A DNA stretch of 26,809 nucleotides from Candidatus Heimdallarchaeota archaeon. GTDB taxonomy: Archaea; Asgardarchaeota; Wukongarchaeia; Wukongarchaeales; JBHIFL01. Below, one piece after another: positions 4,779 through 26,663 of the stretch (its first letter is position 1; each line of letters opens with the position of its first letter). A model generated the notes under the pieces. That model was given only the letters and a program-made list of their open reading frames with translations, ran no database searches and was not told the DNA's origin. A program made the position numbers and the translations under genes. Where the stretch lies: the NCBI GenBank assembly GCA_046761065.1, contig JBHIFL010000057.1:1-26809 (forward strand), read 5' to 3'.

Positions 4779-5606
4779 TTATCGATGAATTTCCTCGACA
4801 TCACGCCACCAGGGTTTGTTAGTTCCTTGCACCGCGCGTTTCTGCCACTTTTTCGGTTTTGGGGTGGTATCCAAGGCTGAAAGGGTCTGGTTGACTTTCT
4901 CAACCACATTTGCGAGATCCAGGGTTGATAGTATTCCTGTCTCTCGGTACTGTCTCCCATATACTTTGACTTTCTCCAAATTGGTTTTAGCATCAAACCA
5001 AAAACCCCAATCATCAGACAGAATAGATGAAACATATTCCAGATTGATGACTTCTTTTTCGTCTCTGAAACCAAGTTTGTGAGCTCGTAATAGCACAATC
5101 AAATCTTTAATGTCCTTTTCAGTGATTTCGTGAATTTGGAGTTTTGCCAAGAGGAGGTCTGCCAATGAAACAGTGGGAAAATCGAGTTGAAGGCGGCCCT
5201 TTTTTGGGTTGGAACCAAATACAATTTGATGACTAAAATTGAGGGTGTCAAGAAAAATATCAATGTGGTAAAGGCCATCTGGATGGTAATACAGGAGCCG
5301 CTGCTTCCGATGGAGAAATAGTACATGCTTATCCGGTTGAAAATTCAACTGTTTCTCAAATAACTTCCGGATTCCGGAACTCTGCTTCTGGTATCCAATG
5401 AAATCAATGTCGGTAAAGGTTGTACTTATTTGATCCAATCGATTAAGGCTTGTATGAAGACCCTCATACTCTGAGCTATGAACCCAAATAGCGAGAGCTC
5501 CTAATAATCGTAAATGGACACCGAATTTCTCACCTTCCTCAGCTATTCGGATCGCATCTCGAATTAAAACTTCATCTGATAACCCTCTTTCACTTTCAGT
5601 GCCCAA
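4779..5606 (-). CDS. Pol-beta-superfamily nucleotidyltransferase, paralog 1
   Basis: LRLLGALA...TDIDF (hG[GS]-like plus DxD), third Asp in HIDIF, and LAKLQI.EI.EKD..D. Probable TTG start at 5606 after GGAGA; the ORF track extends to 5663. Confidence 0.75.
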   Translation of the reverse strand: MGTESERGLSDEVLIRDAIRIAEEGEKFGVHLRLLGALAIWVHSSEYEGLHTSLNRLDQISTTFTDIDFIGYQKQSSGIRKLFEKQLNFQPDKHVLFLHRKQRLLYYHPDGLYHIDIFLDTLNFSHQIVFGSNPKKGRLQLDFPTVSLADLLLAKLQIHEITEKDIKDLIVLLRAHKLGFRDEKEVINLEYVSSILSDDWGFWFDAKTNLEKVKVYGRQYRETGILSTLDLANVVEKVNQTLSALDTTPKPKKWQKRAVQGTNKPWWRDVEEIHR

Positions 5607-5740
5607 TTTGAGGATGTCTCCACAATGATCACATAGGTCAAGACGATTTGAAAGTGTGATCACAAAAAGATTACTGTCCTCGGTTCACTGCTTGTCAAAG
5701 TTAGTTTTTACTAATTTCTCTCACTTATTTTAGTATCCTT

Positions 5741-6694
5741 TTACCCCGAGGTAAACAGGTAGTGTTCGACTTTCTTTGGATGGAGTGTAAAAAGGAAGCC
5801 CTTGAGAATCCCTTCGGAGTATTCAGAGCCCGGATTACAAACAAACGTACGCCCAATCTTCGTAAATCCTTTCGCTTCATGAATATGGCCATGGAGCCCC
5901 AGTAGGGGTTGATGAGTTTCTATGGCGGATCTAACTGCAGTACTGCCTGTGGGCACCAGTTCTGGCTCGCCGCCTGGAAGTAACTGCGGCTTTAAAGACT
6001 CATCGAGCTTGGGTGCGTCATCAATAAGAGATCCATATGGGGGGACATGGATGTTAAATATCGCGCTTTCCATGTTTGTCACCTGGCTGGCCAGCTCTTC
6101 TATCTTCGTAGCAAGCTCTTTTTCAGGGACATCCCGCGGACAATGCCAGGGGGTAATATTTGAATACCCTAGGCTAATCATTTCATGGATCGGATCAATT
6201 TGGACTATCTTCTCGTTCGGATTAATGATATACTCGGAGTCGTTTAAAATCGGATCAATGGCAAAGTTGTCATCGTTACCAGGTTGGATATAGAGCTGCA
6301 CCTCTGTGTTTTGTAGTCGGTCCTCGACTAATTTGACCCATTCAGCAACAGACTCCACTATCAATGTTTTAAAGATCTCTTCCATCTTTTGAGGATCATT
6401 ACGCATTTTATTGACTTCATCTGCTTCGGTAATATAGGGATAATAACCTACAACTCGAATTCGTTTTACCAATGTCTCCAATTCAGTATGGGAAGTTAGT
6501 GTGAGTTCTTCCCCCAAAAACCGAGTAAAATATTTACCTTCCCGCTTCATAATCGGAATGATTTGTTTGCCTGTTATATCCCCCCCGCAGATCAAAATTT
6601 TGGCTTTATAGGTGTCTGCGGCATTTAGTAGCTTTCTAAAACACCGATCGGATCCATGAAGATCTGTCACGAAAAAGATTCGGGGGTTAGCCAC
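5741..6694 (-). CDS. Calcineurin-like (Icc-related) metallophosphoesterase, paralog 1
   Basis: TDLHG, GGDITGK, GNDD, HVPPY, HGHIHE, NPGS. GTG start after GAGGAG. Confidence 0.9.
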   Translation of the reverse strand: MANPRIFFVTDLHGSDRCFRKLLNAADTYKAKILICGGDITGKQIIPIMKREGKYFTRFLGEELTLTSHTELETLVKRIRVVGYYPYITEADEVNKMRNDPQKMEEIFKTLIVESVAEWVKLVEDRLQNTEVQLYIQPGNDDNFAIDPILNDSEYIINPNEKIVQIDPIHEMISLGYSNITPWHCPRDVPEKELATKIEELASQVTNMESAIFNIHVPPYGSLIDDAPKLDESLKPQLLPGGEPELVPTGSTAVRSAIETHQPLLGLHGHIHEAKGFTKIGRTFVCNPGSEYSEGILKGFLFTLHPKKVEHYLFTSG

Positions 6695-6774
6695 AAAATC
6701 TCCTCAATGCACTATCACAATCTCACTTGGGGCAAAAAAATGTAACGCCTTTTATAAGCTGGCATTAAGGCGAA

Positions 6775-6790
6775 TAAAAAAAGGGGAAGA
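6775..6790 (-). terminator. T-tract terminator after APC permease 1
   Basis: Minus strand reads TTCTTCCCC followed by a T run, about 40 nt after the stop codon. Confidence 0.5.
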
Positions 6791-6828
6791 ATGATGTTGG
6801 ATCGACTCTTGTAGTTAACGTTTTGTTT

Positions 6829-8370
6829 CTATTCTGGGGGGAGCTCTTTGAACGACAATTCGAGTGGGATCTTATTTCGGTGGTAGAAACTCGATATGTA
6901 GTATATCACGATTGCTAGAATGAAGATGAAGAACACAAAGCCAAGGGGACCCCACCGTTCAGGTCCTGTGACCCCCGCGATTGTCGGGGTTATGCCAATG
7001 TAGCCAAGATAGATGCTGAAAATCAGAGTAATAAGTCCAAGCCACTGAAGGACGTAAAGAGGTCCGGCTTTACGCCGCACAACCGCAGGACTTGCTTCGA
7101 AGAGTTCAGGTTTCCACTTGGGAAAGACTAAAGCACTGATTGCTACGATCCCTTGCATGATCATCCATTGGAACACCAAGTAAGCGAAGTATTTTGCCCA
7201 ATCAGTCCAAATCCATACCGCTTGTAGCAGCATCGCCACGATGGTGACTACAATCAAGGCATTGACTGGGCTATTGAATCGTGGATTAATCTCTGACAAA
7301 CGAGTGGGTACGATTCGGTCAAAGCTCCAGGCAAAGAGTAGTTTCACACAGATGTAGACGTACACTAAGATCGCAGAGAGTGTCATGCAGGCCCAACCGA
7401 GCGCTACGATGGCGTAGACCAATGTGCTATTCGTGGCATACTGGAACATGAAGAGGAAGGATTCTGTTTCCCAGAGGGCCGCAATAGCCCCAACAAAGTC
7501 CGATCCAAAGCCGGTATAAGTAACTTGGTAAGCCCACCATGTAATCAGGCCAAAGACGATGACCGATCCAATTATTGCGATAAACTGGGCTCGCGTGACC
7601 TCCTTAATCTCACCTGCAAGGTAAATACTGGTATTGAATCCTAAGAAGTTGATGAAGGTCAGTTGCATCCCTGTTAGTGTAGCCATCAATGTGAATTTGC
7701 CAGTAAATGCGGTGTCTGCCTTCGCACGAGCGATGAGTTCACTCATCGATTCTCCGGTGGCTGCCTGATAATTTGCTGCAACTTCATCGGGGCTTGTTCC
7801 AATCATAACTAGAGAGTAAGTAATCAGGCCTATTAGAACACCGACGAAGAAAATAAGCAGCACTTTAGCTGTAGTCTTCGAACCCATTGTTACAACGACC
7901 GCACAGAAAAGATAAAATAAGATGGCAACAATGTACATAGCTACGTCGCCGCTGATAGATGCGGCTGCACTTGATCTTCCTGCGAACTCAAGTAAGGGCG
8001 CCACTGCGAGTTGAGTGAACCACGGGATATAGGCACCAGCCACCTGCAACAAGACTATAAACAGGAAGAAGTTAATCATGAAGCCGATCGCTGGATGAAT
8101 CACTCGACTTACCCAAATGTAGTCGCCCCCACTCCGAGGCATACTGGCAGAATAGATAGCATAGAAGAACCCGATGATGATACTGATGGGAATCGCTATG
8201 AGTGCTGTAGCTGGCAAGTGCACGCCTGGCCATAGGCCCGCACCCCAGATGCCATACACAAAGACCGCTGTAGGCGCCATGAAAAGAATGTTTACGATCA
8301 TAGCATCCCATGCAGACAAAGAACGTACTAATCCTGAGGTTTTTCGTACAAATGGTTCTGCTTCACCCAA
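6829..8370 (-). CDS. APC-superfamily amino acid/polyamine permease 1
   Basis: About 14 hydrophobic segments. MPRSGGDY, AGEIKE and FAWSFDRIVP are APC motifs. N-terminus FVRKTSGLVR, C-terminus FKELPPE. TTG start after GGTGA. Confidence 0.92.
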   Translation of the reverse strand: MGEAEPFVRKTSGLVRSLSAWDAMIVNILFMAPTAVFVYGIWGAGLWPGVHLPATALIAIPISIIIGFFYAIYSASMPRSGGDYIWVSRVIHPAIGFMINFFLFIVLLQVAGAYIPWFTQLAVAPLLEFAGRSSAAASISGDVAMYIVAILFYLFCAVVVTMGSKTTAKVLLIFFVGVLIGLITYSLVMIGTSPDEVAANYQAATGESMSELIARAKADTAFTGKFTLMATLTGMQLTFINFLGFNTSIYLAGEIKEVTRAQFIAIIGSVIVFGLITWWAYQVTYTGFGSDFVGAIAALWETESFLFMFQYATNSTLVYAIVALGWACMTLSAILVYVYICVKLLFAWSFDRIVPTRLSEINPRFNSPVNALIVVTIVAMLLQAVWIWTDWAKYFAYLVFQWMIMQGIVAISALVFPKWKPELFEASPAVVRRKAGPLYVLQWLGLITLIFSIYLGYIGITPTIAGVTGPERWGPLGFVFFIFILAIVIYYISSFYHRNKIPLELSFKELPPE

Positions 8371-8420
8371 TAGTTTTCACCCTTATTTCGGGATTTAATT
8401 GGGATTGTAATTCAATCATG

Positions 8421-8438
8421 TATTTAAATTTTTGCTCG
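8421..8438 (-). promoter_or_regulatory. Archaeal BRE/TATA promoter of APC permease 1
   Basis: Minus strand CGAGCAAAAA-TTTAAATA, about 51 nt upstream of the TTG. Confidence 0.65.
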
Positions 8439-8577
8439 ATTTTAGCAACCTAATATCGGTAGTCAACTTTTTTCTCTGTATTAAGATATTACGAATTCAG
8501 AGATTGTAAAATTCTTATCAATCTGATTGACTTGTTATATCCAAATACATCATTGAGATCATTATCTAAAACGACAT

Positions 8578-8600
8578 AAAAATCAAGAAAAAAAAGGTGA
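8578..8600 (-). terminator. T-tract terminator after APC permease 2
   Basis: Minus strand CACC-T8-CTTGATTTTT, about 35 nt after the stop codon. Confidence 0.5.
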
Positions 8601-8632
8601 ATGAGGTGATTTTGGGTTGTATAAGAGTAACT

Positions 8633-10252
8633 TTATTCAGGCGCTATTTCTTGGAACGCTAGTTCGATATCTATGCCTTCGCGGCGACGATACCACCACG
8701 CAACAAAATAGAGAATCAGCCCACTAAGGAAAATCACTACAATCATCCACAACGATTCAGGTGCATTGGCAAATAGATTATCTTCAGTCAAATAGAAGTA
8801 GGTACAGAGCAACGTCACCGCAACTGTCCAGATTCCTGCCAAAACTAGTATTGGGATGCCAAATAGTTGGTCTTCTGCCACCACTGATTCTTCATACATC
8901 TTCTTTCTACGATATGGGAAAATAATGGCGCTAATCCCCACTAGAAGTATGATGAGGCAAAGCGCAAAGATGCTAGAGACCATAGTTATCCATGCAGTTG
9001 TGTGAAAGATGACGAGGAAGATCTCTGCTGCGATTAGGACAATGATGATGTTGAAGATCGGTGTGTGTGTCTGCTCATTTACTTCGGAAAGTTTTTCTGG
9101 AGCAATGCGATCAAAGGACCAAGCCAACATATTTCGGCTAATCAGCATAATGTTTTGTGGCACGAACCAGACACCCCAGACTAGATATCCAATACTAATC
9201 ACCAGAAAAATGATGGGATTGCTAGTAAGCACTCCTATGAGGGTCGGGAAATATGGAAGTACTCGGATATTATATTCTATATTGCCCCACCAAGCTGCAC
9301 CAATTCCGTAATAGAAGTCAGTACCGATAGTGAGTACATAGAGCAAGCCTAAAATCATGGAAAAGAGCCCTAAGAAGACGGTAGCGATTGGACCTCCATA
9401 GATCTGCGCTTTCTTGACATCTTTGATTTCACCGGCCATGAAGGTTGAACCTATGCAATAAGGCATGTAGGTGAAGCCCAATGGAACCAAGAGAAGAAAC
9501 GGTCTAAAAGCAAAGGGAGGATTCACATCGACTCCGGCATTTTGTGTGTCTGTGATGATCTGGTTGTAAGTATCGGAGGAGCCAGACTGCCAGTTGAAGG
9601 CCGCATTGAACTTTGCTGCGAAGTCAGCTGGGCTGTTTACGGCTATGAGAGCGAAAATGGTAACCAAACCGATTAAGAGAATGGCAAAAGCAATCTTCTG
9701 GAGGTTAAAGTACAAACGAGTGCCAGCAATCGCTAGTAATGCGAAGAGCACTAAAACGATTGCACCAATGATGAAGGTCCCCGAGGTGGTTTCGCCTAAG
9801 GCGCCCAGTTTTAACCCCCAATCAACAAGTCCCTGATTTCGGGTAATGGCGCCCCAAGTGCCCAGGATTGGACCTAACCCATAGCTTGTAAAAGCAAATG
9901 CACCCCAACAAGCCCAAAACGCCAGCCAGACACTCCAACTCCAGCTTACCATGAAACCTAAGGACGGGTGCAGCGATCGACTGACGTAATGGTAGTCACC
10001 ACCAGAACGTGGCATTATTGCAGCAAAAAGCGCATAGACACCAGTTATGGGAATTACCAAGATGGCACAGAAGGCGAGTCCTAGCCCAAGATTCGCTCCT
10101 GGTGAAATATTAGGTGCCCATAGAAAAACATAGCAGAGCACAAAGCCGAATGCAGTCCAGAAAATGTTGAACATAAATACGGAAGCTGATGTTGCAACTC
10201 TGACTAAGCCACTTGATTCTCTAACGAAAATTCCTTTTGATTCTGAAGTCAT
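8633..10252 (-). CDS. APC-superfamily amino acid/polyamine permease 2
   Basis: MPRSGGDY, AGEIKD, LAWSFDRIAP. N-terminus FVRESSGLVR, C-terminus FQEIAPE. ATG 10252 after GGTGA. Confidence 0.92.
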   Translation of the reverse strand: MTSESKGIFVRESSGLVRVATSASVFMFNIFWTAFGFVLCYVFLWAPNISPGANLGLGLAFCAILVIPITGVYALFAAIMPRSGGDYHYVSRSLHPSLGFMVSWSWSVWLAFWACWGAFAFTSYGLGPILGTWGAITRNQGLVDWGLKLGALGETTSGTFIIGAIVLVLFALLAIAGTRLYFNLQKIAFAILLIGLVTIFALIAVNSPADFAAKFNAAFNWQSGSSDTYNQIITDTQNAGVDVNPPFAFRPFLLLVPLGFTYMPYCIGSTFMAGEIKDVKKAQIYGGPIATVFLGLFSMILGLLYVLTIGTDFYYGIGAAWWGNIEYNIRVLPYFPTLIGVLTSNPIIFLVISIGYLVWGVWFVPQNIMLISRNMLAWSFDRIAPEKLSEVNEQTHTPIFNIIIVLIAAEIFLVIFHTTAWITMVSSIFALCLIILLVGISAIIFPYRRKKMYEESVVAEDQLFGIPILVLAGIWTVAVTLLCTYFYLTEDNLFANAPESLWMIVVIFLSGLILYFVAWWYRRREGIDIELAFQEIAPE

Positions 10253-10302
10253 GTTTTCACCCTTTCCTACCAATTTTATTTGGCCTCGTCAAGAGATACA
10301 CC

Positions 10303-10424: not shown

Positions 10425-11183
10425 TTAGCGATCTGTTTCTCCAACCTCATTGTACCATTTTTTACGGGTACCCACGCTGGCTCGTAGCCGCCATTTGCGA
10501 CTCTTTGGAGCACTTCCAATAGCTTCAAGCAAAGAAAAAATGCGTGTCTGAATGATGTCCTTTTCATTAGGTCCAAGTAGCTTATATTCTAAAACATAGT
10601 TGGCAGTTTTATTGAGATTAGTTGTGGTAGTATAATAGAACCCCCAATCTTCACTTAATAGTTTGGCGATATAATTGATGTTAATCGTTTCCTCTTCAGT
10701 TGAGCCCAATTCATGTTCTAAAAGCAATACACACAGATCAATCAGATCTTTTTCATTAATTTCCACGATTTGTAATTTTTCAAGAAGCATATCAGCTAAT
10801 GAAATGGTCTTACCATTTGGGTCGACGGTTAATCGTTTGCGAAAGTCGATTTTGTGGCACATCGCTAATTGATCAAAGAAAACATCGATTTTTCGATTAT
10901 TTGTACGGTCAATAAAGAAATAACGCCCCTCATGAATAAGCAACTCTGACCTTAAAGAATATCCAAGATTTTTAAGTAAGTGACTTATCTCTTTTTTTTG
11001 CTTTGAAAGAGCTATTAAATCGATGTCTGACAGTTCCCTCCCAAATTTCCCAAAAAGATGTTGATATTTAGTACAATGGAGTCTATATGCAATTGCTCCG
11101 ATCAAGCGGAGCTCAATAAATTCTTTTTGTGCTTCTTCAATGATTCTTTGTGCCTCTTCGATAAAACTTGTTTTCTGAATCAT
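10425..11183 (-). CDS. Pol-beta-superfamily nucleotidyltransferase, paralog 2
   Basis: LRLIGAIA...RELSDIDL, KIDVFFD, LEKLQIVEINEKDLID, DWGFYY, C-terminal KWRLRASVGTRKKWY. Confidence 0.78.
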   Translation of the reverse strand: MIQKTSFIEEAQRIIEEAQKEFIELRLIGAIAYRLHCTKYQHLFGKFGRELSDIDLIALSKQKKEISHLLKNLGYSLRSELLIHEGRYFFIDRTNNRKIDVFFDQLAMCHKIDFRKRLTVDPNGKTISLADMLLEKLQIVEINEKDLIDLCVLLLEHELGSTEEETININYIAKLLSEDWGFYYTTTTNLNKTANYVLEYKLLGPNEKDIIQTRIFSLLEAIGSAPKSRKWRLRASVGTRKKWYNEVGETDR

Positions 11184-11256
11184 AGATTATCCCTTCTTGA
11201 TGATAACGTACCTTTGAGCTCCTCAAGCACCACATTCAAAGGACACGTTCTAAACC

Positions 11257-11324
11257 ATATTAAAAATTATCGAATATTTCTCATTCTTCGATATCAGAAT
11301 ATTCAAGATCCGATAGTTATTAAA
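11257..11324. promoter_or_regulatory. Back-to-back divergent promoters for NTase 2 and MPE 2
   Basis: Minus CGATAATTTTTAATAT (11257-11272) and plus CGATAGTTATTAAA (11311-11324). The plus box is about 27 nt from ATG 11351, consistent with a leaderless transcript. Confidence 0.5.
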
Positions 11325-11350
11325 CCGAATCAAGCAAAGAAGGTACAACA

Positions 11351-12304
11351 ATGGCTCGAACTCGATTGTTTTTCGCAACAGACGTACATGGCTCGTTAAA
11401 AGTCATGCAAAAGTTTGTTTGGGCAGGTAAATTTTATAAAGTAGATGTACTTGTTCTTGGAGGGGATATTACAGGGAAAGCAGTAGTTCCAATTGTAGCC
11501 CTACCAGATGGATCTTATCAGGTGAAAGTTGCTGGAACCCTCCAACAAGTTCAGACGGAGGAGGAGCTCAAACAATTAGAAACACGACTCCAAAATATGG
11601 GCAATTATATTTATCGTACATCTCCTGAAGAGATGAATCACCTTTCTTCCAATGTTGCAGCAATAGGTGAGCTTTTCTCACGCGTAATGACAGAATCGAT
11701 TCAAAATTTTCTTCGACATGCAAAAGAGTATCTAAAGCGAACAGGAATCCAAATTTACGTTCAAGCAGGAAATGATGACCCCCTAACGGTCAGAACACTC
11801 CTTAACGAATCTGATTTTGCTATCAACCCTGAAGAAAAAGTAGTAGAGATCGACAAATTTCACGAAATGATTAGCCTTGGACATTCTAATCTTACTCCTT
11901 GGAATTGTCCAGGTGATATTCCAGAGGAAAAATTACGCGACAAGATTGAACATCTGGCTTCACAGGTTACGAAAATGGACAACTGCATTTTTAATCTACA
12001 TTGCCCGCCATTCGACACAGAACTTGATATTGCTCCAGAGTTAGATGAAAGTCTAACTGTAATATTTCGCCAAGGTCGAATGAGCATGGTCTCAGTTGGA
12101 AGTACAGCTGTTAGGGAATCCATTGAGGAGCATCAGCCTTTATTAGGGCTTCATGGACATATTCATGAATCGAGAGGGGCATTCAAGATCGGGCGAACTG
12201 TTTGCATAAACCCTGGAAGCGAATATTCAGAGGGTGTGCTTCGGGGTGTCATAATTAATCTTTACAAAAAAGGTATGAAAGGGTATCAATTTGTCTCAGG
12301 TTGA
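11351..12304 (+). CDS. Calcineurin-like (Icc-related) metallophosphoesterase, paralog 2
   Basis: TDVHG, GGDITGK, GNDD, HCPPF, HGHIHE, NPGSEY. Confidence 0.9.
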   Translation: MARTRLFFATDVHGSLKVMQKFVWAGKFYKVDVLVLGGDITGKAVVPIVALPDGSYQVKVAGTLQQVQTEEELKQLETRLQNMGNYIYRTSPEEMNHLSSNVAAIGELFSRVMTESIQNFLRHAKEYLKRTGIQIYVQAGNDDPLTVRTLLNESDFAINPEEKVVEIDKFHEMISLGHSNLTPWNCPGDIPEEKLRDKIEHLASQVTKMDNCIFNLHCPPFDTELDIAPELDESLTVIFRQGRMSMVSVGSTAVRESIEEHQPLLGLHGHIHESRGAFKIGRTVCINPGSEYSEGVLRGVIINLYKKGMKGYQFVSG

Positions 12305-12327
12305 ACCTGTAAGTATCACTAGAAAGA

Positions 12328-14011: not shown

Positions 14012-14950
14012 ATGAAGCTTCTGCGTCTTGAGTTCACACTTACTACACGTTGTAACTCTCAGTGTATCCACTGCCAAGCTGATGCTTCTCCGTCGAGAAA
14101 CGAAGTGATGAGCGTTGAAGATGCATTCAATTACCTAACTGAAGCAACCGCTATTTCAAAACTCGACTCTTTTATGATATTCGGCGGAGAACCTATGCTT
14201 TATCCAAAACGAACAATAGCCATTATCAAGAAGGGCCACCAGTTGCGGATTCCAAAGATCGAAATGATAACAAACGGAATATGGGGTAAAAACAAGGAAA
14301 CCGCCGAAAAACTAGCTATGAAATTGAAAACTGCGGGTCTTAACACTATTAACATAAGCATTGACGCCTTTCATCTTCGATACATACCAATTAAATATCC
14401 GCAAAACGCAGCATTAGCTTCATTAAAAGCAGGCATAAACAATATTGTATACAATGTTGCTGTCATTGATTCCATAAACGCTCAAAACGAATTTGATAAG
14501 AAAACAGCTCAGGTACTAAAAAAGCTGGAACCAAAAAGAATAGATGTTCGCATAGTCAACATCGTACCAGTTGGACGTGCACTGCAAAATCTAAGTCAAA
14601 ACTTTCAGCAAACCTCATTAAACGGACCGTGCGAAGGAGAAGCAATAACAGGCAATACATTAACAGATCCAGAAAGCATCTGCATCGAACCTTCTGGCTC
14701 AGCAAACATATGCTGGAATTTACCAATTGGAAATGCACAAAGCATCTCATTAAGACGATTAATAACCGAGTACAAATGGAAAAGAAATTCAATCACGAAA
14801 ATTTTAGTGGAGGAGGGTCCCACAGGATTGTTAAAACTTCCCGAAGCACGTAGCGTTCAATTTCAAGAAAAACAGTATATCAACAAATGTCACTTTTGCA
14901 TAGCAATCAGAAAAGCCCTTAGGCCATTTTACCAGACCATATATTCCTAA
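14012..14950 (+). CDS. Radical SAM protein with C-terminal SPASM/twitch-like Cys region
   Basis: CNSQCIHC (CxxxCxxC), FGGEP, TNG, ISID. C-terminal C..IEPSG..NIC..IGN and CHFC. Confidence 0.9.
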   Translation: MKLLRLEFTLTTRCNSQCIHCQADASPSRNEVMSVEDAFNYLTEATAISKLDSFMIFGGEPMLYPKRTIAIIKKGHQLRIPKIEMITNGIWGKNKETAEKLAMKLKTAGLNTINISIDAFHLRYIPIKYPQNAALASLKAGINNIVYNVAVIDSINAQNEFDKKTAQVLKKLEPKRIDVRIVNIVPVGRALQNLSQNFQQTSLNGPCEGEAITGNTLTDPESICIEPSGSANICWNLPIGNAQSISLRRLITEYKWKRNSITKILVEEGPTGLLKLPEARSVQFQEKQYINKCHFCIAIRKALRPFYQTIYS

Positions 14951-15507: not shown

Positions 15508-15933
15508 TTGGTGGAATCGAAAATGGTTACAACCATGATAGTTAGAGTAAGAGATTTAATGAACGAGAACATTATCTCGGTTGACGTTAGCGCATCAATA
15601 CTCGATGCTATCCAAATTATGACTGCTAACGAAATCGGATCCATTGTTGTAACTCGGGGTGGTGACCCCGTTGGAATTCTAACAGAACGGGATTGCCTCA
15701 AGAAAGTTTGTGGGGAACTTGATTGTGCTATCGTCACAGCTGGGGAGATAATGAGCACTCCACTCATAACCATAGATGCAGATGCCAGTCTTTATAAAGC
15801 AGCTCGAATGATGCTTGAAAACAATATCCGCAGGCTTTTCGTGATTCGTGATGGAACGATAGTAGGGATTTTTACCCAGAAGGATCTTCTTACCAAGATT
15901 AATGACGTTTTCCTAGCCCTTGCATCTATTTAA
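15508..15933 (+). CDS. Stand-alone CBS-pair (Bateman) protein
   Basis: VRDLM, GILTERD, IMSTPLITID, IRRL and GIFTQKD are CBS motifs. True start may be ATG 15523 or 15535. Confidence 0.92.
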   Translation: MVESKMVTTMIVRVRDLMNENIISVDVSASILDAIQIMTANEIGSIVVTRGGDPVGILTERDCLKKVCGELDCAIVTAGEIMSTPLITIDADASLYKAARMMLENNIRRLFVIRDGTIVGIFTQKDLLTKINDVFLALASI

Positions 15934-16040
15934 ACTCTTTTACCTAATTCCCTCACCCATTGGTAGTATTACTTGATTTCTGAGCTTAACAAGCAATCTA
16001 ACCGCAATCTTTTTATCTTATGTATAATATAGATAATACA

Positions 16041-16301
16041 ATGAACATAATGACTACAATATCTATAAAAAAGAAAACACATAAGAAATTATTGAAAATC
16101 GCAGCTGACCTTCAACAGCGCTTAGAGACACGTATTGACTTTGATTTTACCATTTCTTTTCTCACAGATCTCTATGAGCGGCAGCAACAGAAATTAGACC
16201 TCTTTCAAGAATTTTGTAAGGAAATTTCCAATGTGTCCTTTAACAAGGCTTACGAAATTTTAAGAGAAGAGCGGATGGTTGATGACAGGCAGTATGAATA
16301 A
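16041..16301 (+). CDS. Putative VapB-like antitoxin (RHH-like N-terminus)
   Basis: MTTISIKKKTHKKL strand-helix start. Directly upstream of a PIN gene and overlapping it. Start is ATG 16041 or 16050. Confidence 0.65.
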   Translation: MNIMTTISIKKKTHKKLLKIAADLQQRLETRIDFDFTISFLTDLYERQQQKLDLFQEFCKEISNVSFNKAYEILREERMVDDRQYE

Positions 16302-16719
16302 AATCGAAAGTTTTGCAGCTGATGGCGGGGTTCTACTCGCTTTAGCTCTAAATGAACATACAACTTTACCACTTAAAGAGAAAATACTCAATGGAGTTGC
16401 AAGTATCTATACTCATCACTATGCATTAACGGAACTGCTCTATGTAATTTGTAGAACTACTGGTATGGAAACAGCAAGAAGAAAGCTACATCTGTTAGAG
16501 AAGTCGAGAGTTGTTACCATAATTTCACCAGAAGAACTTATTGATTATGCTGCTCGCGAAAAATGTAATCGGCGTATAGCCCTAGCTGATTGTTTTACTA
16601 TCGCTCTTGCAATATTCAAGTCATGTGTAGCATTATTCGCTAGAAAGGAACGGGAACTTTTGGAATCGATGAAGCAGAAACCCTTTCCAATTCCAATTCG
16701 GTTCTTGAAAGATATCTAA
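16294..16719 (+). CDS. vapC: PIN-domain ribonuclease (VapC-like toxin)
   Basis: AADGGVL (first Asp), LTELLY (Glu), IALADC (Asp), ALFARKEREL. 8-nt overlap with the upstream gene. Confidence 0.8.
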   Translation: MNKIESFAADGGVLLALALNEHTTLPLKEKILNGVASIYTHHYALTELLYVICRTTGMETARRKLHLLEKSRVVTIISPEELIDYAAREKCNRRIALADCFTIALAIFKSCVALFARKERELLESMKQKPFPIPIRFLKDI

Positions 16720-18739: not shown

Positions 18740-20647
18740 TTGGTTCTACAGACTGTCGATTCAACTTGGAAAAAACGATTAAAGCATAAAATAACAGATG
18801 CAAAGACAGCCATTGGGAAAATTAAGCCGGGTGATCGGATTTTTCTCGGATCCGGGTGCGCAGAGCCCCAACTCCTCATGCAAACACTTCTTGATAAGGC
18901 CCGGGCGTATGCTATTGCGGATACAGAAATCCTGAAGTTTATGAGCCTAGGTCTAACGCCCTATGAAGATCAATTTAAGGATAAATTTCGCTATAATACG
19001 TTTTTTATTGGCTCCGATGGATGTCGTAATGCCGTCGCAGAAGCCCGAGCGGACTACACGCCCATGAGATTTTCCGAAATTCCTGATTTGTTTAAATCTG
19101 GTCAGATTCCAATCGATGTGGCATTGATCCAAGTTACTCCGCCTGATACCGATGATCAATGTAGCCTAGGGGTTTCGGTGGATATTGTCAAGGCTGCGGT
19201 AGAAAATGCTAAGTTTGTGGTTGCTGAAGCGAACCAGAAAATGCCTCGAGTTCATGGGGATAGCTATGTAAGTACCGAGCAAATAGACCTCTTTGTTCCC
19301 AACAATCAACCTATCATTGAAGTCAATCAGCTCAAGCCGTCCCCCGATCCTGTCGTCTATGAAATCGGCAGACATGTTGCGCAGCTTATTGAAGATGAAA
19401 GTACCTTCCATGTAGGCGCCGGTCGAACAGTCAATGCGATCCTGTCCTGCCTTGAGGAAAAAAGGGACTTGGGTATTCATACGTGCGCAGTGACTGATAG
19501 CATCGTCGAGCTAATAGAACATGGAGTGGTCACAAATACGAAAAAGACTTTGCATCCCCATATAACGATCGGTAGCTACGCGATGGGAACTAAGCATCTC
19601 TATAACTTCCTCGATGATAACCCTGCTGTCGAACTTTGGCCCGGTGACTATGTCAGTGATCCATGGGTCATCTGTAAAAACCAAAAAATGGTTACCCTGA
19701 CCTCAGCGTTCGAAGTTGACCTGACTGGTCAAATCTGCTCAACTAGCCTTGGACCTCTCATTTACTCCGGAATTGGTGGTGCTGTCGATTTTATTCAAGG
19801 CGCTGCGCGATCAAAAGGCGGTAAATCAATTGTTGCCCTACCATCCACAACTCGAGATGGAAAGAAGTCTCGTATAGTATTCCGCCTTTCAGATGGTGCT
19901 GGGGTGATGATCCCTCGTTGCGATGTTCACTATGTCGTCACCGAGTGGGGAGTCGCGTATCTTCATGGGAAGAGTCTCCGCGAACGAATTCTGACTATGA
20001 TTTCTATTGCTGCGCCACGGTTCAGAGCGGAGCTTTTACAAGAGGCCAAAAAATATGGGTATATCTACCCACACCAAATTGAACCACCCGGGTACGCCAT
20101 TTACCCAGAGAAATGGCAAACCACCCTCCCACTTGATAGTGGCATAACGATCCACTTTCGACCCGTTCGTCCTGACGATGAATCCGCAGTGAAAGAATTT
20201 TTTTATGCGATCTCCCCAGAATCTCGCTACTTGCGCTTCATGCGACCTCTCCGAATCATGTCACAACGTCAAATTCAAGAGTTTGCAAATATTGATTATG
20301 GGGAACATATGACCATTATCGGGGTAATTCAAGAAGAGGAGACTGCGCGGGAAAAAGTCATAGCTATGGGCAATTATTACGTGCTCCCTGAAAGTGAGCT
20401 CTTTGTGTTACCCACGGGCAATCTCGCTGAAGTCTCGCTCTTGGTTTTAGACAAATTCCAAAACCAAGGCATTGGAACTTTTCTCCTCGAGTTTCTGGGT
20501 CAAATTGCCCAATCATTTGGAATTCGCGGTTTTGTGGCGGAAATATTATTTGAAAACACCAAAGTGTTGCACGTTATTGAGAAAACTAACTTAAAAGTCA
20601 CTCGGAAAGTTGGAGAGGGTATTTACCAAGTGCAGATGACATTTTGA
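18740..20647 (+). CDS. Acetyl-CoA hydrolase/4-hydroxybutyrate CoA-transferase-like domains fused to a Pat-type GNAT acetyltransferase
   Basis: GRADY-like ARADYTP, SLGVSVD, EVDLTGQ, SGIGG.VDF, VVTEWG. C-terminal RPVRPDD, SPESRYLRF, AEVSLLV..FQNQGIGT. TTG start. Confidence 0.9.
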   Translation: MVLQTVDSTWKKRLKHKITDAKTAIGKIKPGDRIFLGSGCAEPQLLMQTLLDKARAYAIADTEILKFMSLGLTPYEDQFKDKFRYNTFFIGSDGCRNAVAEARADYTPMRFSEIPDLFKSGQIPIDVALIQVTPPDTDDQCSLGVSVDIVKAAVENAKFVVAEANQKMPRVHGDSYVSTEQIDLFVPNNQPIIEVNQLKPSPDPVVYEIGRHVAQLIEDESTFHVGAGRTVNAILSCLEEKRDLGIHTCAVTDSIVELIEHGVVTNTKKTLHPHITIGSYAMGTKHLYNFLDDNPAVELWPGDYVSDPWVICKNQKMVTLTSAFEVDLTGQICSTSLGPLIYSGIGGAVDFIQGAARSKGGKSIVALPSTTRDGKKSRIVFRLSDGAGVMIPRCDVHYVVTEWGVAYLHGKSLRERILTMISIAAPRFRAELLQEAKKYGYIYPHQIEPPGYAIYPEKWQTTLPLDSGITIHFRPVRPDDESAVKEFFYAISPESRYLRFMRPLRIMSQRQIQEFANIDYGEHMTIIGVIQEEETAREKVIAMGNYYVLPESELFVLPTGNLAEVSLLVLDKFQNQGIGTFLLEFLGQIAQSFGIRGFVAEILFENTKVLHVIEKTNLKVTRKVGEGIYQVQMTF

Positions 20648-21676: not shown

Positions 21677-21710
21677 GACAAAAACTTGTTATTCAAAAGA
21701 GGTTTAGGCA

Positions 21711-22913
21711 ATGAGTGTTGACTATGATAGATTGCATAAGGATCGAGTGACTAAAGCTCGACAAGTAATGAAAAAATTAGATCTCGATGCTTTTATAGCA
21801 ACAACACTTGAGAACGTTTGGTACGTTGCGAATAGGAGGCCCTTCTGGGTCCTAGGTTGGATGCCCAATGCCATGGCAGTTCTTCCTAAGGAAGGGGCTG
21901 CTGTTTTCCTGCATGCGGATGATTTTGTAGCTCCAACATCTCATTGGGAAAATGAAGGTAGAACCCTTGCAAACGAGTATCAAGGCATAAATCACTATTC
22001 AGTGTGGAATCCAGTACTTGCTACGGACATTTGGACTAGATGGTTGAAACAAAGCTTGGATTCGCTTGGAATTAAAAGAGGAAGGCTTGGTTTAGACGCG
22101 GCTCCTTGGCAATGGTATGCATCTTTCAAGAAAACCTTGCCTGACTTTGAGATCGTTGATGCGGAAGAGGAAATAATCTACGCACGCGCAATAAAGACTC
22201 CGGATGAAATAACCCTACTTAAAAAAGCAAACGAAGTAGCTAGCAGGGGTATTGAAGCAGGATTGGAGGCAATAAAGGCAGGAGTTCGAGAGTACGAGGT
22301 ATTTGGTGCCTTCATGGGCGAACTTTATCGGCACGGATCCGAAGGGGATGGGTTTTGGCCTTTCTTGACTTCAGGTCCAGTCAAAGAAGGAGCTCTCTAT
22401 CCTACTAATCGAATGATCCAAGAAGGAGATGCTGTAGTTCTCGATATGGGCCCGATCCTAGAAGGGTATAATGGCGATTGCATGAGAACCGCGTTCGTTG
22501 GCAAGCCGACTGAAGATTTCAAAGAGATGTATAAGGTCAACTACGACTCTATGTACGCTGCGATTAATACCGCAAGACCGGGAGCCACGGCTTCTGATTG
22601 TTATGAAGCTGCAGCCCAAGTTTACCGAGAAGCAGGGTACCCTGAACCACGATTTGACTTTGGGCATGGAATCGGACTAAGCTGTTGCGAGATGCCAACG
22701 CTTGTGAAGAAAGACGCTTACGATTGGATCGGTGGACCGGCTCGCAGAGATATTGAGTTGAAGCCTGGCATGTGTTTTTCAGTTGAACCAAGAATCTATA
22801 AGTACGTTGATGCAAATACATTCATACAGGCTGCATTGGAAGAAATTTTGGTTGTCACGGACACTGGTCGAGAAGTGATGACCTCAGCTCGTTTTATTGA
22901 TGAATTACTCTAA
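21711..22913 (+). CDS. M24 (pita-bread fold) Xaa-Pro-peptidase-like hydrolase with creatinase-type N-domain
   Basis: RAIKTPDEI, LDMG..GYNGDCMRT, GHGIGL, FSVEP, LEEILVVT. Confidence 0.88.
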   Translation: MSVDYDRLHKDRVTKARQVMKKLDLDAFIATTLENVWYVANRRPFWVLGWMPNAMAVLPKEGAAVFLHADDFVAPTSHWENEGRTLANEYQGINHYSVWNPVLATDIWTRWLKQSLDSLGIKRGRLGLDAAPWQWYASFKKTLPDFEIVDAEEEIIYARAIKTPDEITLLKKANEVASRGIEAGLEAIKAGVREYEVFGAFMGELYRHGSEGDGFWPFLTSGPVKEGALYPTNRMIQEGDAVVLDMGPILEGYNGDCMRTAFVGKPTEDFKEMYKVNYDSMYAAINTARPGATASDCYEAAAQVYREAGYPEPRFDFGHGIGLSCCEMPTLVKKDAYDWIGGPARRDIELKPGMCFSVEPRIYKYVDANTFIQAALEEILVVTDTGREVMTSARFIDELL

Positions 22914-22923
22914 GGATGCCAAG

Positions 22924-22957
22924 TCCTTCCCTTCTTCCCTTCTCTTTTTTCCTTCCC
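22924..22957 (+). terminator. 34-nt pure pyrimidine tract between convergent genes, probable terminator
   Basis: tccttcccttcttcccttctcttttttccttccc begins 11 nt after the M24 stop codon. Confidence 0.55.
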
Positions 22958-22988
22958 ATTTTCGAAATAGAAATACAAATATAATTTT

Positions 22989-23408
22989 TTACTCTTCAGG
23001 TAACAGATCGAGTTGTTGCAGGATTGTTGCCGCATCGTAGTATTCAATGATTCGAGAAATCTTTCCTTCATGAAGCTTGAAGAGATAAGCGATTCTTAAC
23101 TTGACCACTTTATCGGTACCAGGGATTCCTCTGAATTCCTCTTTATGTGTTCCTTCCCAAATTATCTCAAAGAGTACCTGATCTCCTCCAGTAACACGGT
23201 TAATAATAGCACTCTTACAGTCTGGAAATGCGTAGAACAATTCTCTGTAGGCTTCGGTGATCGCTTTTTTCCCTGCGAAAACTTCAGGTTCAGGTACCTC
23301 ATCTGCTACTGCATCATCTGTATAGAATGATTCCATTTCTTCTAAATCATACCGATTCATGGCATCCATCCAATTTTCAATAATTCTAAGATTTTCTTCC
23401 GAATTCAA
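22989..23408 (-). CDS. SnoaL-like / NTF2-fold ester cyclase family protein
   Basis: AFPD, WEGTHKEEFRGIPGT, GKISRIIEYYD...LQQL. TTG start. Confidence 0.88.
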   Translation of the reverse strand: MNSEENLRIIENWMDAMNRYDLEEMESFYTDDAVADEVPEPEVFAGKKAITEAYRELFYAFPDCKSAIINRVTGGDQVLFEIIWEGTHKEEFRGIPGTDKVVKLRIAYLFKLHEGKISRIIEYYDAATILQQLDLLPEE

Positions 23409-23700
23409 GGAGGTGGCTTCCTAATTTATATTTGAGACTTCGATCAAATCAATTGCTATCAAATATAAAGTTTGGCGTGATTCAGAGAAAGAAGTTTATT
23501 TAGTTCGGTATGCGCATCCTAAATGAGAATGACCAATGTAGTCCAGAAAGATTAGCTTGTTAGAAAATGGTATTCTTTGAATCTTATTAGAATTCTAGCT
23601 AAGTCCTGTTCTAACCTCCCAAAATATTTTGGAACCCCGTTCCTTCCGAGAGAAATATTAATTAATCCCTCGAGTGGATAACGCACCCCTAGGTGTTATT

Positions 23701-24531
23701 ATGACTAACCAAGAGGAAATTTTGAAAAATCCCTTATTTACCGATTTGCGGAAAACTGGGCACACAGCTGAACAAGACATCAATACTTGGTCTCAAGGAA
23801 TGGCAATTCATAATTCAAATCTCCTCGAAGCCTTAAAAGAAGTACAGCCTTCTACACGCGAAAGGATTTTGAAAGACATTTGGTCTGAGGTTGCTGTATA
23901 TGTACCTGAAAAGGTAAAGAAGGCCCTAAGTTTAGATGTCGAGATAAATGTGGACAAAATAAACGAATTTATGAGCCAGATGTTGGCGGATCCCAATTTC
24001 TGGGCAATTAAAGGTGTTGGGGATACAATAGAAGAAGCAATCCTCAATTGGGTTAATTCATTTGCGGTTTACGATTTTTCCATATACACTTACCTCGAGA
24101 AACACTTGGGTTCCAAAGACTGTATGAGAATCTACATGGGGCTCTGGGAAAGCTTTGCACTCGGCGCATTGGATCATGTGAAACAAGCATTTGGAATTAC
24201 TGAGGACATAGATATTGACATGGATCTGATAGGTAAAATCTCAAAAGCCTATTGGGAAAGCATTGCTTGCCCCTACAAGGTGATTCGGCACAGTACAGAA
24301 GTGCATGAAGCAGAGATCGAGGATTGTCCTTATTGGCAAAATATGAAAGTGATCCTGGGTGAGGAAAAAGCACGTTCCATGACCCTAAAATGCGAGGCAG
24401 CGGTCTCAGTAAACTACTATGATGCCATCCTAAAAGCACTCGGCGTCTTTGACAAATATTCGTTTACTATGGATAAATTCCAATGCTGTGGTGATGAGAA
24501 TTGCAGAGTTCGTTTCGAATTACGAAAGTAA
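23701..24531 (+). CDS. V4R/ATC-hydrolase-like protein with duplicated N-terminal helical unit
   Basis: C-terminal EIEDCPYW...KCE...CCGDENCRVRFE resembles the V4R/ATC-hydrolase Cys pattern. ATG 23701 after AGGTG. Confidence 0.65.
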   Translation: MTNQEEILKNPLFTDLRKTGHTAEQDINTWSQGMAIHNSNLLEALKEVQPSTRERILKDIWSEVAVYVPEKVKKALSLDVEINVDKINEFMSQMLADPNFWAIKGVGDTIEEAILNWVNSFAVYDFSIYTYLEKHLGSKDCMRIYMGLWESFALGALDHVKQAFGITEDIDIDMDLIGKISKAYWESIACPYKVIRHSTEVHEAEIEDCPYWQNMKVILGEEKARSMTLKCEAAVSVNYYDAILKALGVFDKYSFTMDKFQCCGDENCRVRFELRK

Positions 24532-24616
24532 ACCACTATCCAGTAAATCAACACAAGGGTTGGGTTTGTTACCATGGATTAGTTTCTCTCACAAAAAAGA
24601 TATAGAGGATTTCGAA

Positions 24617-25390
24617 TTGCCTTTGACAAATTTTATAGACGAAGCATGGAGAGTTGTTGATTACTCTAAAGATCAAGGATTAACGTTAAGAGTGCTAGGA
24701 GCTTTGGCCTTTCGAATCCACTGTTCCCAATGGACTCCCTTGCATGTAGCTTTGGGACGAGAAATAACCGATATCGACTTTATAGCTAATGGTGAACATA
24801 GGAAAGATGTAATTGAACTGTTAAAGGGACTTGGCTACGTGATGAATAGAGATCAACTCAGACTCATGAGATTATATCGCAGATATATGCTTGATGACCC
24901 AGACAACGACCGTCATATTGATGTGTTTTTCGATAAGCTTGATTATTGTCATACGATAGAGCTCAAACAGCGACTTGAAATTGACTATCCAACCATTTCT
25001 CTGGGAGATCTCATGCTGGAAAAGCTTCAAATTGTAGAACTTAACGAGAAGGATGTGATCGATGTCATTGTACTCCTGAGGGAGCATGAGGTTGGTGATG
25101 ATGACGAAGAAACTGTCAATAGTGAATACATTTCGGAAATACTTGCAATAGATTGGGGGTTCTACTATACTGCAACTACAAATTTAAAGAAAATCCGAGA
25201 GTATCTCCTTAATCATAAAACTATGAAGAATATAGACAAAAAGATTGTAGAAACGAAAATTAATCGATTGTGTGAGCATATCGAGGAAACTCCGAAGTCA
25301 AAAAAATGGAGGATGCGCGCAACGGTGGGTACGAAGAGAAAATGGTACAAAGACGTCTATGGGGGAGATATTAGCACTAAGAGAGTCTAA
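24617..25390 (+). CDS. Pol-beta-superfamily nucleotidyltransferase, paralog 3
   Basis: LRVLGALA...REITDIDF, HIDVFFD, LEKLQIVELNEKDVID, DWGFYY, KWRMRATVGTKRKWY. TTG 24617 after GAGGA matches the length of paralog 2. Confidence 0.78.
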   Translation: MPLTNFIDEAWRVVDYSKDQGLTLRVLGALAFRIHCSQWTPLHVALGREITDIDFIANGEHRKDVIELLKGLGYVMNRDQLRLMRLYRRYMLDDPDNDRHIDVFFDKLDYCHTIELKQRLEIDYPTISLGDLMLEKLQIVELNEKDVIDVIVLLREHEVGDDDEETVNSEYISEILAIDWGFYYTATTNLKKIREYLLNHKTMKNIDKKIVETKINRLCEHIEETPKSKKWRMRATVGTKRKWYKDVYGGDISTKRV

Positions 25391-25706
25391 TTTACTTGAA
25401 CGGCAAATGGACTTAGGTTACAAGAAAATGGATTTTGATTCTACTGGAGCAGAACTTTTTATAATTTACATGCAATTCATGCAAAGTATAACATTTATTT
25501 GCGTGAAAATATTTTGTCTCGTAAAGATAATTCATAATATGAACTAATTCCAATTTAGAAGGTTAATAACATATTACAAGATTAAATTTCTCTATAGTTT
25601 TTAAGGAAAAGTATTTGTAAATTCGTGTTACTGGTTTGATAATTAAGCTGCTGGTCACATGTTCTTTCAGAACGGAATGGCTTCCCATAGCTTATGAGGG
25701 TTTCAA

Positions 25707-26663
25707 TTGAATACGCGAATATTCTGTTCGACAGACGTTCATGGATCCGATGTAGTTTTCAGGAAGTTTGTGAATGCAGGAAAATTCTATAAAGCAGATA
25801 TAGTTATTCTTAATGGAGATCTGACTGGAAAGGCAATCATACCAATAGTGGAGAAAGCCCCAAATACCTTTGAGGCAAAAATCCTTGGATCGAAGCAAGA
25901 TGCCAAGAGTATGGATGAACTAAAAAATCTTGAAAGTAAGATTGCCAATTTGGGCTTTTATCCATATCTTACCGATGAGCAGGGATTGGAGGAACTCAGC
26001 GTAAACCCCACGAAAGTTTTAGATCTTTTCAAGCATTTTATGATTAAGACAATTGAACGATGGATAGATCTCCTAGAGCAACACTTGAAAGGCACTGGGA
26101 TCAAATGCTTCATGCTTCCGGGAAACGATGATGCTCACGACATTGATGTGCCGATCCAAAGATCAGATAATATCATAAACCCCGAAGGTAAGGTTATTGA
26201 TCTGGATGGAACCCACGAAATGATAAGTACGGGTTATAGCAATCCTACACCTTGGGATACCCCGAGGGAGGAGAGCGAGGCAGCGTTACGAAATCGAATA
26301 GAAGCAATGATTTCTAGAGCAAAAAATACACAATCGTGTATTTTTAATCTACATCCTCCCCCTTATGACAGTGGACTTGATGAAGCCCCACAATTAGACA
26401 GAAACCTTAAACAAGTATCAAGTGTAGGGGAGATTGTAATGTCCGCGGTAGGTAGCACAGCAGTTCGGGAGGCCATAGAAGCATATCAACCGCTGGTTGG
26501 TCTACACGGGCACATTCATGAGTCAAAGGGTGCACGTAAAATTGGGCGAACGCTTTGCCTGAATCCTGGTAGTGAATATCAAAGCGGGGTCTTAAAAGGG
26601 ATCTTATTAAACCTTGACCGGAAGAAGAAGAAACTAAAATCACACCTCTTCACTTCTGGTTAG
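25707..26663 (+). CDS. Calcineurin-like (Icc-related) metallophosphoesterase, paralog 3
   Basis: TDVHG, NGDLTGK, GNDD, HPPPY, HGHIHE, NPGSEY. TTG start after GAGGG. Confidence 0.9.
   Translation: MNTRIFCSTDVHGSDVVFRKFVNAGKFYKADIVILNGDLTGKAIIPIVEKAPNTFEAKILGSKQDAKSMDELKNLESKIANLGFYPYLTDEQGLEELSVNPTKVLDLFKHFMIKTIERWIDLLEQHLKGTGIKCFMLPGNDDAHDIDVPIQRSDNIINPEGKVIDLDGTHEMISTGYSNPTPWDTPREESEAALRNRIEAMISRAKNTQSCIFNLHPPPYDSGLDEAPQLDRNLKQVSSVGEIVMSAVGSTAVREAIEAYQPLVGLHGHIHESKGARKIGRTLCLNPGSEYQSGVLKGILLNLDRKKKKLKSHLFTSG

Follow-up and report, generated by a model that had tools for sequence, protein, structure and literature searches.

The window analyzed here comprises 26,809 nucleotides (positions 1 to 26,809 of contig JBHIFL010000057.1, assembly GCA_046761065.1) from Candidatus Heimdallarchaeota archaeon and contains three copies of a gene pair encoding a nucleotidyltransferase (NTase) and a metallophosphoesterase (MPE), together with two permeases that adjoin these pairs. 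We found that the permease, the MPE and the NTase make up a trio that is passed on as a unit in archaea and bacteria alike, in nearly every gene order, and that the permeases of the trio end in a conserved tail. We prefer to read this association, with a probability of roughly 0.38, as a module centred on the transporter: the NTase and the MPE would reversibly nucleotidylylate a protein target to control uptake, and the permease tail would recruit both enzymes. The NTase, MPE and permease families are all uncharacterised, and the trio is among the stricter linked gene sets in uncultured soil and sediment archaea (Bathyarchaeia, Nitrososphaerales, Asgard) and in bacteria, where the carriers include Chloroflexota, Alphaproteobacteria and Actinomycetota. 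Our literature search found no paper describing the NTase/MPE pair or the trio; the Pfam family PF14907, at most a distant relative of the NTases, was met once, in a phosphonate cluster where it is a neighbour of uncharacterised function.

The gene trio and its conservation

A preliminary description of the window had reported three NTase and three MPE paralogs, with each NTase adjoining one MPE and no credible gene between them, and we recovered all six open reading frames (ORFs) at the same coordinates. In the first pair, NTase 1 (4779..5663, minus strand; 4779-5606 from the likely start) is recovered by the family profile in its own genome with an E value of 2e-131, and its alignment shows GALA...DIDFI...IDIF and K..KDxxD; it lies next to MPE 1 (5741..6694, minus strand), a calcineurin-type enzyme of 317 amino acids (aa) in which the DxH, GD, GNDD, H and GHxH motifs are intact. 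Upstream of both and on the same strand is permease 1 (6829..8370, minus strand), a divergent member of the APC family that scores 63.5 bits against PF13520 (AA_permease_2) and has the C-terminus ...LSFKELPPE, which gives the order permease, MPE, NTase. Permease 2 (8633..10273, minus strand), also a divergent APC-family protein (PF13520 59.5 bits, C-terminus ...LAFQEIAPE), is found downstream of NTase 2 (10425..11183, minus strand) and on the same strand. NTase 2 and MPE 2 (11351..12304, plus strand) are divergently oriented and are separated by 167 bp (11184..11350), a region that has no RNA family match and is presumed to be a shared promoter region for the two genes. The third pair consists of NTase 3 (24617..25390, plus strand), whose frame is open from 24449 and whose homology begins at ~24578-24617, and MPE 3 (25707..26663, plus strand); because the contig stops 146 bp downstream of MPE 3, a third permease is not visible beside this pair. 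Directly upstream of NTase 3 is a 285-aa ORF (23674-24531) whose Atlas neighbours are only 'hypothetical protein' clusters.

The three arrangements given in the preliminary description (MPE then NTase, divergent, and NTase then MPE) match the strands of the ORFs. The gaps between NTase and MPE measure 78-134, 167 and 316 bp for pairs 1, 2 and 3. No convincing gene, Rfam family or tRNA turned up in these gaps, and scanning the whole window with Rfam, for tRNAs and for tandem repeats likewise brought up nothing of relevance. The window NTases are 38-48% identical to one another over their full length and the window MPEs 47-48%, while second codon positions agree at 62-75% and third positions at only 30-35%, a contrast that identifies the copies as old duplicates under purifying selection. 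A recent tandem duplication, which the preliminary description had already thought incompatible with the divergence of the copies, is rejected on these values.

The same description had called the module triplicated, and this holds for the contig but understates the assembly, in which our profile search found seven NTases, seven MPEs and six permeases with the conserved tail. This assembly is a metagenome-assembled genome (MAG) of 4.4 Mb in 234 contigs, 91% complete and with 8.2% contamination, so that one shared genome is certain only for the three copies on the contig of the window. All seven NTases are linked to an MPE, and a permease adjoins at least five of the seven pairs. The sixth tailed permease opens contig C39 (196-1791, minus strand) with no adjacent pair, and both pair 3 of the window and the pair on contig C64 abut contig ends; seven complete trios are therefore possible.

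Linkage in other species was counted at 49 loci that have at least 3.5 kb of flank on both sides of the NTase, with a partner scored when it was found within 3.5 kb. An MPE is present at 41 of the 49 loci, a permease at 40 and both at 39, with every relative gene order and orientation represented, including the permease between the NTase and the MPE. Metagenomic contigs, judged by their gene tables, agree with this picture (for example, permease, MPE and NTase follow one another in GCA_038851825.1). The homologues are thus mostly linked elsewhere, as the reading of the preliminary description required, and the NTase-MPE pairing is far beyond chance. The comparison within the phylum covered 40 relatives scored for NTase, MPE and permease: a permease occurs in 19, a strong-scoring MPE in the same 19 and an NTase in 18 of those, and the other 21 have none of the three. 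A set of lower-scoring NTase matches in the relatives is not linked to any MPE.

The number of NTase copies per module varies, as two NTase genes stand beside one MPE at G013:C1:1911172-1914354 and at loci L015, L019, L029, L034, L036 and L062. At one further locus (L021:499-2244, SOJX01000071.1, a Planctomycetota MAG) a single ORF of 581 aa encodes an NTase-MPE fusion, the only one seen, which could be an assembly or sequencing artefact. A search for longer forms yielded two proteins, one of which (P0391) was considered as a second NTase-MPE fusion and was rejected for having no similarity to the MPE.

The NTase family is large, with ~1950 close clusters (90% identity) among 5.8 billion proteins and 944 representatives (50%-identity clusters, E < 1e-30) among 1.8 billion, and the MPE family is several times larger (>8000 matches against ~1950). 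At least 572 NTase loci are found in contigs of a one-genome-per-species set, with 41-51% identity to the window copy. The carriers of the NTase comprise Bathyarchaeia, Nitrososphaerales, Thorarchaeota, Chloroflexota, Alphaproteobacteria, Actinomycetota, Planctomycetota, Caldiserica, Dormibacteria and others.

The distances between the members of the trio are also correlated. Using distance-matrix (Mantel) correlations with 500 permutations, in which species relatedness inflates r, we obtained r = 0.72 for NTase against MPE (57 pairs), r = 0.84 for NTase against permease and r = 0.86 for MPE against permease (48 trios), and in each comparison 0 of the 500 permutations reached the observed value. 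The NTase and MPE distances follow the permease more closely than they follow each other. The preliminary description had regarded the permeases as neighbours of the pairs; our results instead make the permease the third and best-correlated member of the unit. Congruence between the NTase and MPE trees, which the same description had put forward for checking, is only partial: it is seen over the 57 pairs, where it is confounded by species relatedness, and is absent among the seven paralogs of the assembly (r = -0.02). Within the assembly only two trios, the one formed by permease 1, MPE 1 and NTase 1 (C57a) and the one on contig C46, are mutually closest for all three genes; the nearest relatives of the former are at L015 and L029 for each of its genes.

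Folds, motifs and the permease tail

Residue conservation and the structural models rest on alignments of 33 sequences. The AlphaFold 2 model of NTase 2 (predicted local distance difference test score, pLDDT, 92.7; predicted template modelling score 0.90) shows a minimal enzyme of the Pol-beta fold whose C-terminal domain is helical. Its VIA-align Z-scores are 12.7 with ANT(2'')-Ia (155 residues, root-mean-square deviation 3.3), 12.5 with MenT1, 11.1 with JHP933, 11.0 with LnuA, 9.8 with MenT3 and 8.9 with MenT4; Foldseek agrees, with a probability of 1.0 to several NTases, and gives CdnE a template modelling (TM) score of only 0.27. The Pol-beta assignment made beforehand is thus borne out by the model, and the residues that define the superfamily are found together with its core fold, namely hG[GSA], [DE]x[DE] and a third carboxylate. 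The invariant residues are G29, D53/D55 and D100, and K136, K145, D146 and D149, which form the K...[KR]DxxD motif of the MenT type, are invariant or nearly so. The window NTases share GALA...H, [TS]DID, IDhF, K-L-Q-I...E-K-D-x-x-D and DWGF, and their C-terminus is rich in Trp and Lys/Arg; many of the C-terminal residues are invariant across subfamilies.

Profile databases capture this family poorly. PF14907 (NTP_transf_5) scores 21.1 and 21.5 bits on two window NTases, one of them NTase 2, and does not match the remaining copy (gathering cut-off 31.2); within the family it matches 25 of the 33 members, all below the cut-off. PF08843 (DUF1814) matches six of the 33, the best with an E value of 0.013 and again all below the cut-off. 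NCBIfam yielded no specific family for the NTases, the MPEs or the permeases, and a sequence search of the PDB with the NTase profile returned only noise. The NTase is a single-domain protein of ~250 aa with a near-neutral median isoelectric point (pI) of 6.3 and no further Pfam domains, and it lacks the architecture of GlnD and GlnE, which have HD and ACT domains or tandem NTase domains. Longer NTase forms show no clear extra domain, except one with a MarR-like winged helix-turn-helix (wHTH).

The model of MPE 2 (pLDDT 93.6) aligns best with aq_1956 (2YVT, Z 24.4), TT1561 (1UF3, Z 23.9) and MPPED2 (Z 21.4), followed by GpdQ (Z 17.8), ADPRibase-Mn (2nxf, Z 17.7) and PptH (Z 16.2) and also by Mre11, Rv0805 and Lmo2642. 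All five motifs of the calcineurin-like superfamily are kept, as the preliminary assignment had it, with the invariant residues D11/H13, G38/D39, G140-N-D-D143, H217 and G269-H-x-H272. The window MPEs share the dinuclear-metal motif set of aq_1956, TT1561 and MPPED2, of which aq_1956 and TT1561 are themselves uncharacterised, but differ from them in having GNDD instead of GNH[DE] as motif III and, between motifs II and III, some 85 inserted residues (~44-130). PF00149 is above its cut-off for two of the window copies and the Pfam scores of the MPEs are otherwise weak; PF14582 (Metallophos_3, the family of aq_1956 and TT1561) gives 20.5-25.4 bits against a cut-off of 28.2, although aq_1956 and TT1561 are the top structural matches. 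Judged by their motifs and models, the NTase and the MPE both look like active enzymes.

Both window permeases exceed the PF13520 cut-off of 27 bits, which places them in the APC superfamily, and a crude hydropathy scan shows multiple segments resembling transmembrane (membrane-spanning) helices. NCBIfam has no subfamily near its cut-off for the trio permeases, and Pfam and NCBIfam scans found no nucleotide-binding domain in them. A family-specific feature of these proteins is the tail G-[IV]-D-x-x-L-A-[FY]-K-E-I-P-P-x-COOH, which ends every one of the 46 full-length trio permeases that we surveyed (G in 43, F or Y in 43, E in 38, I in 36, and the two P in 44 and 43). It follows straight after the last transmembrane helix and a basic stretch and is cytoplasmic. 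All six permeases of this assembly carry it, as do eight further permeases from the relatives, some of which are not linked to an NTase or an MPE. From its composition the tail looks like a docking peptide and not like an obvious acceptor site. The mean identity is 26.6% for the permease bodies, 43.6% for the NTases and 45.2% for the MPEs.

Possible roles of the module

The genes that surround the trio differ from locus to locus but are nearly always concerned with nitrogen compounds. The window has a formamidase, an M24 creatinase/prolidase-type peptidase and a CBS-pair protein; elsewhere in the assembly we found class-III aminotransferases, an M28 peptidase and a CN-hydrolase whose gene separates the permease from the NTase; and near the module in other Bathyarchaeia are amidohydrolases, creatininase, ADI/DDAH and OTCase. 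Across phyla, dimethylglycine-oxidase-like genes occur at 20 loci, CBS proteins at 14, MttB with a probable corrinoid protein at nine and a choline/ethanolamine kinase at eight, and the choline kinase and MttB adjoin the trio in Bathyarchaeia and Chloroflexota. A cultured haloarchaeon, Halobellus limi CGMCC 1.10331, carries the trio on its megaplasmid (NZ_CP031312.1, 386259-389795) as MPE, NTase and then the permease on the opposite strand, next to GbsB-like and betaine-aldehyde-dehydrogenase-like (GbsA-like) genes and an IclR regulator; its permease ends in ...HSEIPKD, the same type of tail. A choline-type cargo is therefore likely for some permease subfamilies. The module stands in loci for the breakdown of choline, methylamine, amides and amino compounds, processes that bear on carbon and nitrogen cycling and on the turnover of methylated amines.

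The constancy of the trio amid such variable neighbours suggests that the NTase/MPE pair serves a constant partner and not any one pathway. In our preferred reading the permease would import a nitrogenous compound (in certain subfamilies a choline-type compound or an amino alcohol, here a different amine or amide), and the NTase and the MPE would be accessory enzymes dedicated to their own permease and recruited via its tail. The NTase would add a nucleoside monophosphate (NMP) from the corresponding triphosphate (NTP) as a phosphodiester, which the MPE would hydrolyse, and the target of this reversible nucleotidylylation could be the permease, the MPE or another bound factor, with the effect that uptake is switched or tuned. 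Each of the seven paralogous sets would then be a separate, privately controlled uptake channel. There are precedents for such activities: GlnD/GlnE and DrrA are protein NMPylators with the Pol-beta fold, MntA is a minimal NTase that AMPylates HepT, and PptH is an MPE that removes a protein-bound phosphodiester. Should the pair indeed switch the permease, APC transporters would turn out to be under a post-translational control of a new kind, and the conserved tail together with the cultured carrier H. limi make the question directly testable.

Among the closest parallels are AmtB-GlnK-GlnD and GlnE/glutamine synthetase, the reversible uridylylation and adenylylation of nitrogen control, in which a nitrogen-compound transporter is likewise genetically coupled to a Pol-beta NTase and a reversing hydrolase; the logic of AmtB-GlnK-GlnD, a nucleotidyl switch on uptake, is also the one proposed for the trio. 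The differences are that the trio has no PII protein, HD domain or ACT sensor domain, that its hydrolase is a separate MPE, and that it combines a tailed APC permease with a minimal ANT/MenT-like NTase whose protein target is only proposed. A further reading, a way of coupling enzymes to a transporter that would be new and common to both domains of life, is in our view on the unlikely side: the permease tail (...[FY]KEIPPx) would recruit a private NTase and MPE that reversibly nucleotidylate the permease complex or the cargo at entry, and a cell would contain many independent 'nucleotidyl-gated' amine/choline channels.

Several of our results weigh against this reading. Pfam and NCBIfam scans found a sensor domain in neither the NTase nor the MPE; the NTases of known structure that come closest have small molecules (ANT(2'')-Ia, LnuA) or tRNA (MenT1, MenT3 and MenT4), and not proteins, as their substrates; and the tail has no invariant Ser, Thr or Tyr, nor is its Lys invariant. 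A permease and an MPE without an adjacent NTase are found at G040:C6, G030:C129 and G038:C71, which is at odds with an MPE that merely undoes the work of the NTase; the MPE may have a role independent of it. The lack of correlation between NTase and MPE distances among the seven paralogs belongs here as well, as does the inflation of the Mantel correlations by species relatedness. Finally, since membrane proteins generally diverge faster than soluble proteins, the contrast in identity between the permeases and the two enzymes carries little weight.

An alternative that is doubtful in itself but almost as likely as our preferred reading is that the NTase acts on the cargo itself, nucleotidylating the O or N of the freshly imported amine or amino alcohol, either for metabolic trapping or as a 'nucleotide handle', and that this NMP adduct, or the phosphoester arising from it, is later cleaved by the MPE, with substrates that differ for each paralog. 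The fold of the NTase argues for it, as ANT(2'')-Ia and LnuA are small-molecule O-nucleotidyltransferases with the same compact NTase core and catalytic carboxylates; the window NTases differ from them in sequence (only 13-16% identity), in their extra conserved Trp- and Lys/Arg-rich helical C-terminal domain, and in having an MPE and a permease as obligatory partners outside any resistance context. With its near-neutral median pI the NTase is unlike typical RNA binders, the linkage of the pair with a transporter and with catabolic genes is tight, and the MPE fold neighbours ADPRibase-Mn and GpdQ cleave CDP-alcohols and glycerophosphodiesters. In fosfomycin synthesis, Fom1 and FomD add and then remove a CMP handle, which provides a precedent for such a route. 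The choline kinase and MttB genes beside the trio fit as well. In the MthK/MthB choline pathway of Eubacterium limosum an imported quaternary amine likewise receives a phosphate handle first, choline being phosphorylated to phosphocholine ahead of MttB-family demethylation (PMC12155760). Choline kinase and MttB also adjoin the trio in several loci, which links the two by genomic context alone, but the published cluster contains no NTase or MPE and the window no MttB or choline kinase. Against cargo modification, the catabolic neighbours differ per locus and are unlikely all to accept NMP-tagged substrates, the NTase and the MPE are far more conserved than the permease bodies that define the cargo, with many C-terminal NTase residues invariant, and the addition of NMP followed by its removal without an intermediate step would be a futile cycle. 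This alternative also has no role for the conserved tail and explains the variable pathways less well than the control of the permease. If it were true, it would represent a new activation route for amines.

It is improbable, in our judgment, that the module scavenges phospho-amines, with the permease importing zwitterionic aminoalkyl phosphates (such as phosphocholine or phosphoethanolamine), the MPE as its primary partner freeing phosphate and amine, and the NTase secondary or separate. The loci with permease and MPE but without an adjacent NTase are what this would predict, together with L005, where a permease is followed by two MPEs, and with the greater size of the MPE family; choline-type contexts recur, including that of H. 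limi, and the window encodes a PF01663 phosphodiesterase (267-1871). Yet 18 of the 19 carrier genomes do have an NTase, usually beside the MPE, phosphate-regulon genes were not found as recurrent neighbours of the 49 loci, a choline kinase beside a phosphocholine phosphatase would counteract it, and the substrate is wholly inferred.

We regard with about the same reserve the idea of a local second messenger made by the NTase, degraded by the MPE and sensed by the permease or by a CBS protein, comparable to the control of osmolyte uptake by c-di-GMP or c-di-AMP. It would account for the opposed chemistries of the two enzymes and for the many paralogous pairs per genome, as with GGDEF/EAL proteins, and the MPE resembles the cyclic-nucleotide phosphodiesterases MPPED2, Rv0805 and Lmo2642. 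The stand-alone CBS-pair protein of the window (15508..15933, plus strand; 141 aa, Pfam CBS E 1e-32) is 44% identical to its counterpart encoded next to the trio at Bathyarchaeia locus L072, and in Chloroflexota 13 loci have a CBS gene directly 3' of the NTase. This association is confined to certain lineages, however, and many CBS genes in this assembly are unlinked; the CBS protein is possibly an occasional accessory of the module, its membership being uncertain. The NTase belongs to the minimal ANT/MenT/DUF1814-like group and not to the CD-NTases, sensor domains are lacking in both enzymes and a nucleotide-binding domain in the permease, and seven parallel diffusible signals would cross-talk.

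For a defence function, searches with the PADLOC models found no match for the NTases and only a weak local PDC-S10 match (27-30 bits) for the MPEs, and the family search matched none of 50,697 phage records and one of 72,556 plasmids, in agreement with the preliminary view that the context is metabolic more than antiviral. A CD-NTase/CBASS or other catalogued defence system was rejected on the PADLOC and phage results and on the low TM score to CdnE. An AbiEii/MenT two-gene operon was likewise rejected, as no AbiEi wHTH or MenA neighbour is present, the genes found instead are the MPE and the permease, and their order varies. The window NTases resemble AbiEii/MenT (DUF1814) and PF14907 in the motif order hG[AG], DxD, third Asp and K...[KR]DxxD, but differ from them in their sub-cut-off Pfam scores, in having no antitoxin-type partner and in a context of transporter and catabolic genes instead of a mobile or defence island. 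That an AbiEii/MenT-like NTase toxin modifies tRNA and the MPE reverses this as its antitoxin is thus very improbable, in spite of the likeness in motifs and fold to MenT1, MenT3, MenT4 and JHP933 and of a multi-copy, patchy and horizontally spread distribution, since order and orientation vary, with the permease sometimes between the two genes, 80% of the loci are permease-linked, the NTase is near-neutral, and 41-51% identity across two domains of life is more typical of metabolic enzymes; the PADLOC, phage and plasmid results led us to reject any defence or toxin-antitoxin reading.

Other genes of the window

The PF01663 protein mentioned above is a type I phosphodiesterase/nucleotide pyrophosphatase of 534 aa from the alkaline-phosphatase superfamily, which could release phospho-headgroups or act on nucleotides. 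Its gene contains a 54-bp internal tandem repeat (819-932) that encodes a duplicated ELISEQIIDRETI segment. The ORF at 3110-3994, like the one upstream of NTase 3, encodes a protein of ~290 aa with no Pfam or NCBIfam family, and its product has an N-terminal hydrophobic segment followed by a Cys, as in a secreted protein or lipoprotein. Downstream of the formamidase is a radical SAM protein (14012-14950) whose top NCBIfam hit, to a YydG-type peptide epimerase, is weak, at 77 bits against a cut-off of 300. A PIN-domain ORF (16279-16719, Pfam PIN E 2e-6) overlaps the end of a family-less ORF of 93 aa (16020-16301), and the layout of 16020-16719 is that of a VapBC-type toxin-antitoxin pair. Finally, the ORF at 18740-20647 encodes a protein of 635 aa in which an acetyl-CoA hydrolase/transferase (N- and C-terminal domains) is fused to a C-terminal GNAT acetyltransferase domain.

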